From the IMG/VR virus record IMGVR_UViG_3300027753_000008: a stretch of DNA of 64,000 bases; one strand, written 5' to 3'. The position numbers were made by a program, and so were the translations under genes. This document shows, piece after piece, positions 1,861 through 41,940 of this stretch. Every line of letters begins with the position of its first letter. The first letter of the stretch is position 1. The stretch comes from an uncultured virus (IMG/VR IMGVR_UViG_3300027753_000008) (taxonomy: Duplodnaviria; Heunggongvirae; Uroviricota; Caudoviricetes). The notes beneath the pieces are model-generated. The model was not told the origin of the DNA. It saw only the letters and a program-made list of their open reading frames with translations, and did no database searches.

Positions 1861-1929
1861 GTATTACGCTTATACCGAGAACGGAAGTGTAATAATTATA
1901 TCACAGGACAGATACATTGTTGAAAGCTA

Positions 1930-1958
1930 TGTACAAAGTATTGGCTATAAAGTAATAT
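1930..1958 (+). promoter_or_regulatory. Early promoter driving tmRNA
   Basis: TGTACA-N17-TAATAT. Confidence 0.65.
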
Positions 1959-1964
1959 ATAAGA

Positions 1965-2180
1965 TGTAAGCGTTAATAACGGATGTATGGACCTCGGGGC
2001 AGTACCGAGCAGCTCCACCACAAGTACATAAGGTGTATTTCTGATGGGGCTGAACTAGGATCGACATGTATTCAAGTTTACAAACACAAATGCAAACGAC
2101 AATTTTGCACCATCTGGATTTGCCTTAGCGGCATGATCACAGGGGGTTGGCCACTTACCTAGCAACAGAAAAGTGGCAAC
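1965..2180 (+). ncRNA. ssrA: Circularly permuted two-piece tmRNA (alphaproteobacterial type)
   Basis: Piece ending T-arm CTCGG-GGCAGTA-CCGAG then CAGCTCC-ACCA (2020) precedes GGGGCTG (2046) with G3:U70; tag ORF 2092-2136 ANDNFAPSGFALAA-stop; terminal hairpin with GCAACAGAA; ends approximate. Confidence 0.93.
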
Positions 2181-2216
2181 TTTTATAATGTTTAATTTAA
2201 TCTAGGAAAAAAGAAA

Positions 2217-34222: not shown

Positions 34223-34299
34223 GCTCCGATAGCTCAATTGGTTAGAGCGCCCCGCTCATAACGGGTCGGTTGCAGGTTCGAGTCCTGCTGGGAGCACCA
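34223..34299 (+). tRNA. tRNA with CAT anticodon, probably tRNA-Ile2 (lysidine)
   Basis: Cloverleaf with CTCATAA loop, TTCGAGT, encoded CCA; C4-G69/C5-G68. Confidence 0.85.
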
Positions 34300-34304
34300 T
34301 AAAT

Positions 34305-34381
34305 GAATACGTAGCTCAGCTGGATAGAGCAAGTGCCTTCTAAGCACTAGGTCGAGGGTTCGAATCCTTCCGTGTTCGCCA
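34305..34381 (+). tRNA. tRNA-Arg(TCT)
   Basis: Cloverleaf AGTGC-CTTCTAA-GCACT, CCA end. Confidence 0.95.
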
Positions 34382-34387
34382 AATAAA

Positions 34388-34464
34388 CTCGGTGTAGCGC
34401 AGTCTGGTAGCGCGCCTGCTTTGGGAGCAGGATGTCAGAGGTTCGAATCCTTTCATCGAGACCA
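34388..34464 (+). tRNA. tRNA-Pro(TGG)
   Basis: Cloverleaf CCTGC-TTTGGGA-GCAGG, CCA end. Confidence 0.95.
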
Positions 34465-34485
34465 ATCACAAACAGGAGAAATAAA

Positions 34486-34761
34486 TTGGAAATAATTGTA
34501 GTATGGTTCTTGTCAATGGCGGCAATGAACACAGAAATAGAAAAAAATAAAAGTAGTATTGAGAACTTAAATGCAGAGATAGTAATGCTTCAAGTTGAAA
34601 ATACCATTATTAATGAACAACTTGCTGATCACGAACAAACTATTATTAATACTGCTGCATCGCACTCTGCGTTCTATGCTCGTCAGCAAATTGATAATGA
34701 TGTGTTTGAGGATTCTATTGAAATCCTTAATCAAAGGTTAAATATGCTAGAAAAGCCCTAA
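34486..34761 (+). CDS. Coiled-coil hypothetical protein
   Basis: AGGAG RBS before TTG 34486. Confidence 0.6.
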   Translation: MEIIVVWFLSMAAMNTEIEKNKSSIENLNAEIVMLQVENTIINEQLADHEQTIINTAASHSAFYARQQIDNDVFEDSIEILNQRLNMLEKP

Positions 34762-34762
34762 T

Positions 34763-39042: not shown

Positions 39043-39285
39043 ATGGAAATGTTTACAGTAGAGTTTGAAGAAGATGAGACGTGTATTACTGTACTAGATA
39101 ACACAGGAGAATTAGAAGATGTTGTAGCTCTTCTTTACGATGATTACTGTCATTTTAGACAGTGGAATGCAAAAGCAAACAAATTCGAAGTGATAACTCT
39201 AAAACCAGAAATGTATTTAAAGTTAATGAAAGCGTGGGACCTACAGGAAGGAGCCTACGATATTGTAACAGTGGAGAGAAACTAA
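39043..39285 (+). CDS. Hypothetical protein
   Basis: MFTVEFEEDET.ITVLD. Confidence 0.65.
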   Translation: MEMFTVEFEEDETCITVLDNTGELEDVVALLYDDYCHFRQWNAKANKFEVITLKPEMYLKLMKAWDLQEGAYDIVTVERN

Positions 39286-39287
39286 AT

Positions 39288-39929
39288 ATGATACAATTAC
39301 AGCCGCTATTTCCTAACGCAATTGGGTTCGAAAGCGCACCAGACTTGGTAACTTATGATCTGGTTAATGATGTTAAATCTTTATCCCAAGGTCAAAATAC
39401 TCACAACAGGGTAAGCATTGAAAACAGGATTTTAACTACCGATCAAAACGAATTTAAAACTAAGCATTCTCAGCTAGTTAAGTTTTTAGAAGATTCTCTC
39501 GAAAACTTCTACTATCATGCTTTAGGAGTTCCATTTGAAGATGGCAACATCAAATCAGTAATAACACAAAGCTGGTTTACTTATTCTGTTAAGGGAGAAA
39601 GTATGCATGGGCATAAGCATCCCAATAGTATTGTTAGTGGTGTTTTTTATATTAATGCTAAAAATGAAGATCAAATTATTTTTACGAAACAGCATGAATA
39701 TAAGAACCTTGAGTGGTATGCAAAAGAAAGAAATGAATACACAGGTAAAGAGTTTATAGTCCCAGTTAAAACCGGAGATTTAATTTTATTTAACTCTAAT
39801 CAACATCACCATTTTAATGATATAGAGCACGATGAGGAAAGAATTAGCTTGGCCTTTAATTCGTGGCTTGGTGGAGAATTTGGTACAAAAGATGCACTAA
39901 CGCATCTTGTTAGTAATAACACATATTAA
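39288..39929 (+). CDS. 2OG-Fe(II) oxygenase (TIGR02466-like)
   Basis: SW, HxHPNS.VSGVFY, GDLILFNS..H, RISLAFN. Confidence 0.85.
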   Translation: MIQLQPLFPNAIGFESAPDLVTYDLVNDVKSLSQGQNTHNRVSIENRILTTDQNEFKTKHSQLVKFLEDSLENFYYHALGVPFEDGNIKSVITQSWFTYSVKGESMHGHKHPNSIVSGVFYINAKNEDQIIFTKQHEYKNLEWYAKERNEYTGKEFIVPVKTGDLILFNSNQHHHFNDIEHDEERISLAFNSWLGGEFGTKDALTHLVSNNTY

Positions 39930-39938
39930 GGAAGTAAA

Positions 39939-40244
39939 ATGTTTAATAAAGATGATATCGTTTCTGCAGTAACTCCTGTAGGCGAATTTGTAGGTAAATT
40001 TGTAAGTTTTGAAAATAATATTCTTACACTAGCAAAGCCAAAAGGAGTAGGGCAATCACAAGAAGGTATTGGATTAATGGATGGAGTATGCATCTCTGGT
40101 ACACGTAATCCGGAAGAAGTAAAGATACTAAATGTTGTTTTAGTGGCTCAAACAAATCTTGAACTAGCTAATGGGTATAGACAGGCTATTGGTTCAGTAC
40201 TAGCTCCTATGACAAATATCGACATGTCTAAATTTAAATTATAA
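39939..40244 (+). CDS. Hypothetical protein
   Basis: AAGGA RBS; GEFVGK. Confidence 0.7.
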   Translation: MFNKDDIVSAVTPVGEFVGKFVSFENNILTLAKPKGVGQSQEGIGLMDGVCISGTRNPEEVKILNVVLVAQTNLELANGYRQAIGSVLAPMTNIDMSKFKL

Positions 40245-40326
40245 GCCGTTGTTTTTAAACAAAACAAAAACGCATAAAAATGAAATTAAACGTGTACATT
40301 GCTTTCTACATGCTGTAGGATGGTTA
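40237..40326 (+). repeat. 90 bp promoter-containing direct repeat, copy 2 (TGTACA-N17-TAGGAT at 40293-40321)
   Basis: 81/90 identical to 32761-32850. Confidence 0.85.
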
Positions 40327-40351
40327 TAGAAACAAAGAGAAAGATTATATT

Positions 40352-40606
40352 ATGACACCTTCACAAAAAGCTGACCGTTTAGCTCTTATCAAAGAAATCG
40401 CTGAGCGCAAGAAGAAAATGTCTAAGATCCGTAAACGGACTGCATCGGTTATCTCTCGTGCTAAGACTGCTTCACGTAAAGCCAAAGAAATTAAAATTCC
40501 TAAGGAGTCTAATATCTATCAGTGGACTGATGCTTCTAAATATGCTCAAGAGTATTATGGCGAAACGCTCCACTATACAACGAAATTCGATAACGATTGG
40601 GATTAA
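40352..40606 (+). CDS. Basic hypothetical early protein
   Basis: Directly after early promoter. Confidence 0.7.
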   Translation: MTPSQKADRLALIKEIAERKKKMSKIRKRTASVISRAKTASRKAKEIKIPKESNIYQWTDASKYAQEYYGETLHYTTKFDNDWD

Positions 40607-40881
40607 TCTTAGTTGTTATCGAAAAACCCTGTTTGCTTTAAACCCTCGAGGTGCATTACAGGTCGGTATAGGCACTGGTACCGAATTAAACCCAGTCGGT
40701 TGCTGCATACGTGAAATGCAGATAAGGGGAGAGCCACTGCAGAAAGGCTCTCCCACGAAAACTTCTTAATACTGCATAGTACGAGCAAAGAAACGTAACA
40801 GGTAGGTAGGTGCTAGCAACCGAACCCGTAAAATCCTGGTGAGGGACTAAGTTAAGACTACTATTCAGTATTAAGGAGTTT
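40586..40881 (+). ncRNA. Candidate structured non-coding RNA
   Basis: Several hairpins with G-U pairs, a 22-bp closing stem and three long-range complementarities. Confidence 0.6.
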
Positions 40882-40891
40882 GGAGGATGTT

Positions 40892-41101
40892 ATGAGGACT
40901 GTACACTATGTAGGATTTAGAGGCGACGAGTACGTCCGCGCTCATAGGATCTTCGGTGGACCGGTTTATATCCACCGCGATTATGATGATCGTGTGTTTA
41001 GTGAAGTTGGCGATGATGATGTCGTTATCTTTGGACCAAAGTATAAGAAGCTGCCATATGTGTGGGATGCATCTGCAGTTGATAGGAGATACACAGAATG
41101 A
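40892..41101 (+). CDS. Hypothetical protein
   Basis: GGAGG RBS; VHYVGFRGDEY.RA.RIFG.P..IH...D.R. Confidence 0.7.
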   Translation: MRTVHYVGFRGDEYVRAHRIFGGPVYIHRDYDDRVFSEVGDDDVVIFGPKYKKLPYVWDASAVDRRYTE

Positions 41102-41304
41102 TTTTTAGTACCAGTCTCATCGATACTAAGGGCCATTGGATGGTAGGCACCGAGTGGCAATATGCCAAAGGTATTGTCACCATGCATCCTGAAGGTTTCA
41201 GCTGTTCTTGTAAAAAAGCACCGCGCAAACCATGTAACCATATTCGTAATGTTAAGTTACGTATCTATGGCACATTTGATCAGTATTATAAGGATGCAGC
41301 GTAA
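41098..41304 (+). CDS. SWIM-type zinc finger protein
   Basis: CSC...PCNH. Confidence 0.65.
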   Translation: MIFSTSLIDTKGHWMVGTEWQYAKGIVTMHPEGFSCSCKKAPRKPCNHIRNVKLRIYGTFDQYYKDAA

Positions 41305-41645
41305 TGTCTATGCATATGATTAGAGGAGTTCAGGTCCATGGTGTAGGGAAACGCCGTAAGGCGAAACGAAAATCGAATAAATTATTGAAGGCGGAAGCCG
41401 AACATCAAAAGTTTTTAGATAAACTTATTTCAGGTAAGTCAAATTATAGACCTGACTTACCTGACTATAATTGCGGTCCTAGTATGACGAGTGATCGTAT
41501 AGCAGGCAATGGTCTTGCAAAAGAACGTAAGCAATATACTGGTACCGAGATTGCTGGAATTGTTACTACACACAAATCAAACCTTATGCCAGTACGTAGA
41601 GATAACAAACAAGCAGCTATAGATGCTGCATCAATGAGGAGATAA
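41304..41645 (+). CDS. Conserved T4-like hypothetical protein
   Basis: YTG...GI.T.HKSN..PV...A.D...MRR. Confidence 0.7.
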   Translation: MSMHMIRGVQVHGVGKRRKAKRKSNKLLKAEAEHQKFLDKLISGKSNYRPDLPDYNCGPSMTSDRIAGNGLAKERKQYTGTEIAGIVTTHKSNLMPVRRDNKQAAIDAASMRR

Positions 41646-41647
41646 TA

Positions 41648-41782
41648 ATGTGGGCACTTAAATTAAATGCACAGGGTCAGCCAGGGCCTGCAGTTGCTCG
41701 TAGGCTTAAACAAGTCAAGATCGAGCTAGACTCTCACTCGTCTCGGTTAGAGTTCGGCTATTGCTATCTGGAAATGGTGTAA
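41648..41782 (+). CDS. Small hypothetical protein (44 aa)
   Basis: GAGGAG RBS; MWALKLNAQG... Confidence 0.45.
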   Translation: MWALKLNAQGQPGPAVARRLKQVKIELDSHSSRLEFGYCYLEMV

Positions 41783-41940
41783 TGGCTAAAAGAATCCCCA
41801 TGAAGGGAGGAGATGAATACGATGCTCTAACTAAACGTTCACGTAAATTTTTTATGTGGAGCAGAGGGCAAATTAAAAAAATTAAACGCGGATATAATAA
41901 ACGATTCCGCAAAGCAGGAAAGATTATAGATAATGAATGA
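41782..41940 (+). CDS. Small basic protein (52 aa)
   Basis: TAATG coupling; MAKRIPMKGGDEYDALT... Confidence 0.6.
   Translation: MAKRIPMKGGDEYDALTKRSRKFFMWSRGQIKKIKRGYNKRFRKAGKIIDNE

Follow-up and report, generated by a model that had tools for sequence, protein, structure and literature searches.

That phage RNAs can assemble with themselves without protein, as reported for ROOL, GOLLD and, in a 2026 preprint, manA, has come as a recent surprise, and the function of these molecules is still unknown. ROOL and GOLLD are described as phage RNAs that are often encoded near tRNA islands (PMC12286853). In the same account (Kretsch et al. 2025; PMC12286853), loops that switch from one palindrome to another serve as evidence for the intermolecular kissing loops that cryo-EM shows in OLE and GOLLD. 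The manA RNA of cyanophages, which is shorter than 200 nt, is reported to form closed oligomers or cages via kissing loops (bioRxiv 10.64898/2026.07.01.735769). Small RNAs also accompany the tRNA genes of T4, where RNAC and RNAD (species 1 and 2), with lengths of 139 and 119 nt, are annotated adjoining tRNA-Arg; one source states that their 'biological roles are unknown' (PMC3014915). In addition, T4-type phages have been described to carry PeSL cassettes, which combine an early promoter with a simple stem-loop (PMC2839356, PMC4122927).

The locus considered here lies in a stretch of 64,000 nt, hereafter called the window, which belongs to an uncultured marine T4-like myovirus and carries genes for ribonucleotide reductase, baseplate and tail proteins and a single-strand DNA-binding protein of the gp32 type. 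The gp32 protein shares at most 51.9% identity with its counterparts in cultured phages, the nearest of which are Phage C48C1, Methylophilales phage Melnitz and the S-RIM12 cyanophages, with C48C1 and Melnitz-3 classified in the Kyanoviridae. In the window, the Rfam models also detect a permuted (two-piece) tmRNA (tmRNA_permuted, 83 bits; alpha_tmRNA, 74.7 bits), which is absent from the ARAGORN output, and a tmRNA is likewise annotated in the related cultured phage Melnitz-3.

Structured modules between two small genes

The interval of interest (40586-40881, 296 nt) separates two small genes on the same strand, encoding proteins of 84 and 69 aa, whose relatives were found in viral contigs at 66 and 161 loci, respectively. 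The GC content at 40600-40899 is 0.445, compared with ~0.31-0.40 upstream. Just 5' of the locus, there is a gene for a 2OG-Fe(II) oxygenase (phrog_81, E 2.4e-29), a typical auxiliary gene in marine T4-like phages.

On the plus strand, the whole interval is predicted to fold with an energy of -99.2 kcal/mol, compared with -71.6 ± 4.95 kcal/mol for 200 dinucleotide shuffles (z -5.58), none of which folded as well, and the minus strand reaches a z of -3.04. Its two larger parts, modules 1 and 2 (Table 1), give z values of -2.92 and -2.84 when folded alone, with one and none of the 200 shuffles, respectively, being as good. These parts also differ in their distribution. In a blastn comparison of the 296 nt with the first 151 loci, bases 1-178 recur in many contigs at 72-76% identity, whereas bases 174-296 recur in close relatives only; elsewhere, their place is taken by a different long-stem hairpin, by a minimal hairpin with UUUU behind it, by a tRNA or by nothing. 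Two loci (L003 and L005) match the middle part of the interval alone (query 75-176), 58 nt after a tRNA-Pro gene, and in their contig the gap between the homologs of the two genes that flank the interval in the window holds a long-stem cassette without the core. Given this split and the separate occurrence of the parts, the interval is not the single unit of ~300 nt proposed in a preliminary description of the locus but comprises, in a row on the plus strand, three RNA structure modules that are independent of each other: the hairpin P0, module 1 and module 2.

Table 1. Positions of the modules, their parts and other features of the window.
Feature	Coordinates	Strand	Details
Permuted tmRNA	1926-2181	+	
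tRNA genes (Met-cat, Arg-tct, Pro-tgg)	34223-34464	+	nearest end to the core 34464, 6 kb off
91-aa gene	34486-34761		directly follows tRNA-Pro, no core between
2OG-Fe(II) oxygenase gene	39285-39929	+	
Upstream 84-aa gene	40352-40606	+	TAA stop 40604-40606
P0	40586-40623	+	17-bp hairpin, 17/17 pairs, 4 of them G-U; 5' arm formed by the last codons and the TAA stop (40604) of the 84-aa gene
Module 1	40628-40762	+	
Module 1, P1 hairpin	40628-40662	+	closing stem CCUGU/ACAGG; apex palindrome CCUCGAGG (CUCGAG at 40645)
Module 1, pseudoknot 1	40663-40696	+	P2 UCGGUA 40663 / UACCGA 40679; loop ACUGG 40674 pairs with CCAGU 40692
Module 1, pseudoknot 2	40697-40721	+	S1 CG 40697-98 / CG 40710-11, interleaved with S2 CUGCAU 40703 / AUGCAG 40716
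Module 1, junction AUAAG, P4 and tail	40722-40762	+	P4 GGGAGAGCC 40727 / GGCUCUCCC 40746; loop A-CUGCAG-AAA (CUGCAG at 40737); tail ACGAAAAC 40755-40762
Module 2	40759-40881	+	interchangeable long-stem cassette; stem 40759-40781 / 40859-40881 with 22/23 positions paired; conserved ~77-nt interior
RBS and start of 69-aa gene	40882-40894	+	GGAGG (40882-40886), ATG (40892); just outside and directly 3' of the module 2 stem

All 13 motifs named in the preliminary description were located exactly at the coordinates it had assigned to them, and both of the long stems it had drawn, one over the upstream stop codon and one ahead of the downstream RBS, were borne out. Three long-range pairings that it had proposed between the first part of the interval and the large loop of module 2 fared differently, being present in the window sequence but not conserved. 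Among nine distinct combinations of module 1 and module 2 that share the module 2 type of the window, the 9-bp pairing is complete in two (the window type and L234), with the other seven keeping 5-7 of the 9 pairs, and the 7-bp and 6-bp pairings are each complete in one, the window type. With at most two complete cases in nine, these pairings are best seen as chance and were rejected as conserved structure.

Fold and palindromic loops of module 1

Module 1 belongs to an uncatalogued family of phage RNAs with a length of ~135 nt. In these RNAs, the P1 hairpin is followed by two H-type pseudoknots (1 and 2), the AGAUAA junction, the P4 hairpin and a tail. Pseudoknot 2 is built from two helices, S1 and S2, which generally comprise 4 bp each; the subtype of the window has only the two invariant G-C pairs of S1, compared with four pairs in most relatives, and a longer S2 of 6 bp. 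Members of the family were collected with three pattern scans, two in viral contigs and one in metagenome contigs, and a covariance model (R1), based on 28 distinct sequences, served as the filter for the resulting loci. Of the first 80 loci from metagenomes, 37 were true members, and a stricter parse gave 54 distinct full elements, distributed over uncultured viral and metagenome contigs.

The proposed fold was evaluated in two alignments, a MAFFT-only alignment of 28 distinct sequences (A1) and a larger, model-fitted alignment of 60 hits, 48 of them distinct (A2). The fraction of paired cells amounts to 92.0% in A1 and 93.4% in A2, compared with 34-47.5% and 35-47%, respectively, when the partners are slid by 1-3 columns in A1 or slid in A2. 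Changes on both sides of a pair are seen at 15 of the 38 pairs in A1 and at 17 of the 38 in A2, and the covariation scores, 0.247 in A1 (0.02-0.09 slid) and 0.273 in A2 (0.02-0.08 slid), were reached by none of 500 shuffles in either case. RNAalifold, run unaided, recovers the four nested helices P1, P2, S2 and P4.

In A2, the outer pairs of P1 are 98% paired, with four of the six changed on both sides, and P4 is 99.3% paired, with three pairs changed on both sides, while the core of P2 is invariant. Both pseudoknots consist of two interleaved helices, each of them with compensatory change. In pseudoknot 1, a pair of the crossing helix ACUGG/CCAGU (columns 82-101) is UA in 27 sequences and CG in 21, with no unpaired case, and the same holds for A1. 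In pseudoknot 2, S1 varies at columns 106-116 (UA:24, CG:9) and 107-115 (UA:28, UG:6, CG:5), and S2, which is 100% paired, alternates between AU and GC (34/14) at one pair and between CG and UA (44/4) at another. Of the 1808 cells, 96 are G-U and only 17 are A-C, indicating that the plus-strand RNA is the selected molecule. The sequence AGAUAAGGGGAG is invariant in A1; since AGAUAAGGGGAG and GGUACC were prescribed by two of the patterns used for collection, the invariance of these letters is in part due to selection of the sequences.

The preliminary description had regarded the interval as a folded non-coding RNA without a known family and had named, in advance, three observations on which this reading would depend: covariation among homologs, folding relative to dinucleotide shuffles and the lack of coding conservation in the open reading frame 40458-40769. 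All three came out in its favor, with covariation in both alignments, an energy of the 296 nt better than that of all 200 shuffles and a frame that is open across the element in just one of 54 distinct relatives. More generally, whichever strand is read, each frame is open across the element in at most 10 of the 54 distinct members, and a coding role of module 1 was therefore rejected. Its list of local helices, including pseudoknot 1, also stood, but the second pseudoknot and the self-complementary loops described below had been overlooked. It is almost certain that module 1 represents a new family of conserved, structured non-coding RNAs.

A further characteristic of this RNA is the palindromic nature of two of its loops. 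The P4 loop contains a palindrome in all 54 distinct elements, which is CUGCAG in 42, CCUAGG in five, CUCGAG in four and GCUGCAGC in three of them. This loop was left free in the metagenome scan and in one of the viral-contig scans and fixed in the other viral-contig scan. Among 35 loci without CTGCAG in P4 that were fetched later (after L279), comprising the late rows of the metagenome scan and the whole loop-free viral-contig scan, there were six true full-length members, all of which carry CCUAGG or CUCGAG. Sequences that share a loop are related, and few switches are involved: a single change to CUCGAG, one or two changes to CCUAGG and one lengthening to 8 nt. CCUAGG is combined with two P4 stems and with several upstream halves that differ from each other. 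Within a single chain, self-pairing of a hexamer is precluded in a loop of 10 nt, and a second copy of the P4 hexamer is not kept elsewhere in the molecule. At the apex of P1, a palindrome of at least 6 nt is present in 30 of 35 distinct hairpins, mostly as UGUACA and otherwise as GGAUCC or, in the window, as CCUCGAGG; the five hairpins without a 6-nt palindrome are four of the GGCC type and that of L301. The evidence from P1 is thus weaker than that from P4. The mere number of palindromic hexamers in the 296 nt, six compared with 5.2 expected, is not above chance and means nothing by itself. The pattern characteristic of symmetric kissing loops, palindromes switching to other palindromes, is found at P4 at the level of sequence. 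By analogy with OLE, GOLLD and manA, the palindromes of P1 and P4 suggest that module 1 may associate with itself through its loops, a proposition for which we consider the odds to be even.

Distribution, setting and alternative explanations

The family is restricted to contigs of uncultured marine T4-like phages, with a single copy in the window and likewise in each of three other contigs (71, 151 and 82 kb). No match to 40586-40881 was obtained with the 4227 models of Rfam 15 at gathering scores, and raising the E value limit to 10 gave only five weak matches, the best with an E value of 1.6. Similarly, blastn of 40300-41150 against 50,697 phage records gave no match, and R1 did not match Phage C48C1, Melnitz-3 or the tRNA/rnaC/rnaD region of T4. 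No match was found in six files of a catalogue of 8,495 viral RNA candidates (PMC10690425), whose alignment files may list part of the motif, and we found no description of the module 1 motif in the literature. Among the genomes of 185,579 bacterial and archaeal species, the search pattern gave 68 matches, three of which are real (L397, L412 and L433). All three lie in small contigs of one metagenome-assembled genome, Rhodobacteraceae bacterium Water_Bin34, which have very different coverages and are probably binned phage; as evidence for a host they were set aside, and they provide at most a faint hint. A weak, distant relative of the core (L104:664-807, 21 bits) directly follows a tRNA gene and has, as judged by eye, the loop CUGCAG in its first and CCUAGG in its last hairpin. 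A pattern scan for kin of this element gave eight hits, the one relevant hit being the same contig, so that it stands as a singleton.

In the family as a whole, the core is frequently located within tRNA clusters on its own strand. Of 85 distinct contexts, 24 contain a tRNA gene in the available flank, which covers ~460 nt on the upstream and 500 nt on the downstream side, and all 34 tRNAs in these flanks are on the strand of the element. In L184, the core begins ~9 nt after tRNA-Arg, counted from the estimated start of P1, and ends 12 nt before tRNA-Gln, a spacing that defines the stretch from P1 to P4 as the minimal unit. In L003, the order is tRNA-Arg, tRNA-Pro, module 1 and 91-aa gene. The 91-aa gene of the window is homologous to that of L003 (28% identity, E 6e-11), and the core site thus differs between related genomes. 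The corresponding stretch of the window (34465-34762) is not unusually structured (z -0.41). As to expression, contigs with relatives of the 3' part of the core and of module 2 were found in four RNA-library runs from four studies, in which DNA was possibly present, and one of these contigs, 555 nt long, continues from the relatives into a tRNA. The contigs do not cover the flanking genes and show neither ends, strand nor level, and thus give a weak hint of expression.

The flanking modules are dominated by long stems. In all 23 distinct variants of P0, the stop codon of the upstream gene is enclosed by a hairpin; the apexes vary, and the arms remain matched in spite of the coding function of the 5' arm. 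The pairing of the outer stem of module 2 is kept by several compensatory changes in L258 and by a single one in L234, and the ~77-nt interior hardly changes in these two loci. This interior contains a small hairpin, GGU-GCUAGCA-ACC, whose loop carries GCUAGC (at 40812) in the window type but has a different sequence in L258. In other relatives, the position of module 2 is occupied by different long-stem cassettes or by none, and long-stem cassettes also occur without module 1; a search of L088 and L074 with R1 gave no module 1 match. The two long stems on either side of the core suggest putative sites for a double-strand RNase or putative 3'-end hairpins.

The cassettes that substitute for module 2 (e.g. 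in L010, L118, L171, L020 and L088:1760-1960) are structures of their own, with long AU-rich stems that enclose the recurring motif GAGGG - small hairpin - CCUAAA(A). Two such cassettes follow each other in tandem in L020, and they may represent a second uncatalogued RNA family. Downstream of module 1 in L223, L256, L287, L308 and L235, there is instead a cassette with a tRNA-like T arm, recognized by eye, in which GGUUCAAUUCC or GGUUCAAAUCC lies between matched stems, with a closing stem of ~18 bp and without a CCA end. In L156, the core and the next cassette are separated by a near-consensus promoter-like stretch (TTGACA, 17 nt, TATATT; by eye), suggesting that the two can be separate transcription units.

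The arrangement in the window would also suit a cis-acting mRNA element, in which the string of hairpins provides processing, terminator or stability signals for a polycistronic transcript and module 1, by means of a fold that resists nucleases or binds protein, protects or regulates the neighboring messages without existing as a separate RNA. This interpretation is consistent with the position of the locus between two small genes on the same strand, with the enclosure of the upstream stop codon by P0 in 23 of 23 variants, with the end of module 2 at 1 nt before the RBS, with the minimal long hairpin followed by UUUU that takes the place of module 2 in some relatives and with the length and near-perfect pairing of both stems. 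However, the RBS itself is unsequestered, and the core does without a flanking protein gene in L184, where it lies directly between two tRNAs, follows tRNA-Pro in L003 and L156 and has varying downstream partners, including the 69-aa gene, genes of the 113-aa type, the 91-aa gene and tRNAs. Moreover, two pseudoknots, invariant junctions and covarying palindromic loops exceed the needs of a processing site. We therefore regard a cis-acting element as unlikely, if still a serious candidate.

Less probable still is a new self-cleaving ribozyme or a ligand-sensing riboswitch, with the invariant junction letters forming an active site or a binding pocket. The compact double-pseudoknot topology, the many invariant unpaired letters (GGUACCGA, AAACCC, AGAUAAGGGGAG and ACGAAAAC) and the location in transcripts with multiple RNAs, where ribozymes sometimes cut, would all be in line with such an activity. 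Yet, this invariance is partly due to the search patterns, and there is no match to a known model, the best candidate being a CPEB3/HDV-like hit that is limited to 40718-40766 and scores 13.6 bits (E 1.6), compared with a gathering score of 35. In addition, the two pseudoknots are consecutive rather than nested as in an HDV-like fold. A riboswitch, in turn, is difficult to reconcile with the lack of a constant class of downstream genes and of an expression platform, with the RBS lying free outside the structure and module 2 or a promoter-like stretch able to intervene. Finally, it is very improbable that the interval is a PeSL-like recombination cassette acting at the DNA level, a crossover point for gene shuffling with an incidental RNA fold, because, even though modules have been swapped independently between related contigs, the core is found at different sites and PeSL-mediated shuffling is documented in T4-like phages (PMC2839356, PMC4122927), the compensatory changes, the 96 G-U compared with 17 A-C cells and the crossing helices point to selection on the plus-strand fold, no sigma-70-like promoter was detected on the plus strand of 39800-41800 (a weak negative, since it comes from a simple consensus scan), and mobility would be compatible with an RNA function.

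A proposed self-associating RNA and its described counterparts

The reading that we favor, with a probability of about 0.5 for the whole of it, is that module 1 is a non-coding phage RNA of a new family that is released from its transcript and associates with itself through its loops. It would be made within transcripts of tRNAs or early genes and set free from them as a small, stable RNA. Where the core lies among tRNAs, release could occur through tRNA processing; in the window, it could proceed via cuts in the stems of P0 and module 2, which have the look of sites for a double-strand-specific RNase, although such cutting is purely conjectural. The hexamer palindromes at the P1 apex and in the P4 loop would then pair with the same loops of other copies, and the resulting symmetric kissing loops might give rise to dimers, rings or head-to-head/tail-to-tail chains, in a manner resembling ROOL and GOLLD. 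It is tempting to speculate, although we think the balance tips somewhat against it, that module 1 represents a minimal natural 'RNA brick' made alongside phage tRNAs, a rigid double-pseudoknot rod whose two ends, P1 and P4, bear different self-complementary kissing loops and which polymerizes head-to-head and tail-to-tail into rings or filaments in infected cells. On the same tentative view, it would be a counterpart of ROOL and GOLLD on a miniature scale, and a widespread one among uncultured marine T4-like phages.

The comparison with described systems places these ideas in context. Module 1 shares with the PeSL cassettes, as far as these are described in the sources cited above, the nature of a short conserved intergenic module at sites where the neighboring genes differ between related T4-like phages, but it differs from them in that no plus-strand promoter was detected in 39800-41800 and that its core is a covarying double pseudoknot. 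An example of a palindromic kissing loop outside the phages is the retroviral dimerization initiation site (HIV-1 DIS), where a loop of 9 nt contains a palindrome of 6 nt between purines. Among the P1 loops, the most common one, A-A-UGUACA-A, shows the same layout; the HIV-1 element is an unrelated molecule with a different biology, however, whereas module 1 has two different palindromic loops per RNA.

The T4 RNAs RNAC and RNAD are comparable in that they are small non-tRNA RNAs of a T4-type phage with a similar size, located in a tRNA cluster and encoded on the strand of the tRNAs. Nevertheless, a search of T4 69500-73500 with R1 and filters off gave no significant match over rnaC or rnaD, the best overlap with rnaC scoring 5.2 bits (E 0.78). 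Furthermore, rnaC folds with a tRNA-like T arm, unlike module 1, and the T4 RNAs sit in the tRNA cluster, whereas the core in the window is 6 kb away from the tRNA genes.

The manA RNA is also a short marine phage RNA and, as described in the preprint, shows that small phage RNAs can self-assemble. Module 1 has no match to the manA model of Rfam. In manA, the reported contacts are between pairs of different loops (L5-L7', L8-L9') and lead to pentamer-based cages (bioRxiv 10.64898/2026.07.01.735769), whereas the loops of module 1 are self-complementary and imply two-fold contacts.

Several parallels exist with ROOL and GOLLD. Like module 1, these RNAs are phage-encoded, contain several pseudoknots and have no known protein partner or function, and in both cases loop palindromes switch to other palindromes. 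They are often found beside tRNAs on the same strand, a feature shared by the family (24 of 85 contexts) but not by the copy in the window. On the other hand, there is no similarity in sequence or to their models, even at E values up to 10, and they are ~600-800 nt or more in length, compared with a core of ~135 nt. Module 1 is further set apart by its occurrence in marine T4-like phage contigs. ROOL and GOLLD are described as forming RNA-only cages (PMC12286853), whereas for module 1 we infer assembly from its loops. An uncatalogued family, together with its alignment, model and structure, is thus added to the annotation of phage RNAs, and its source are abundant marine T4-like phages. Module 1 is small enough for direct tests and, therefore, offers a tractable route to the role of RNAs encoded beside tRNAs. 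If our reading is true, it would represent a much smaller, separate family that bears the hallmarks of ROOL and GOLLD, namely phage origin, a tRNA neighborhood, pseudoknots and covarying palindromic loops.
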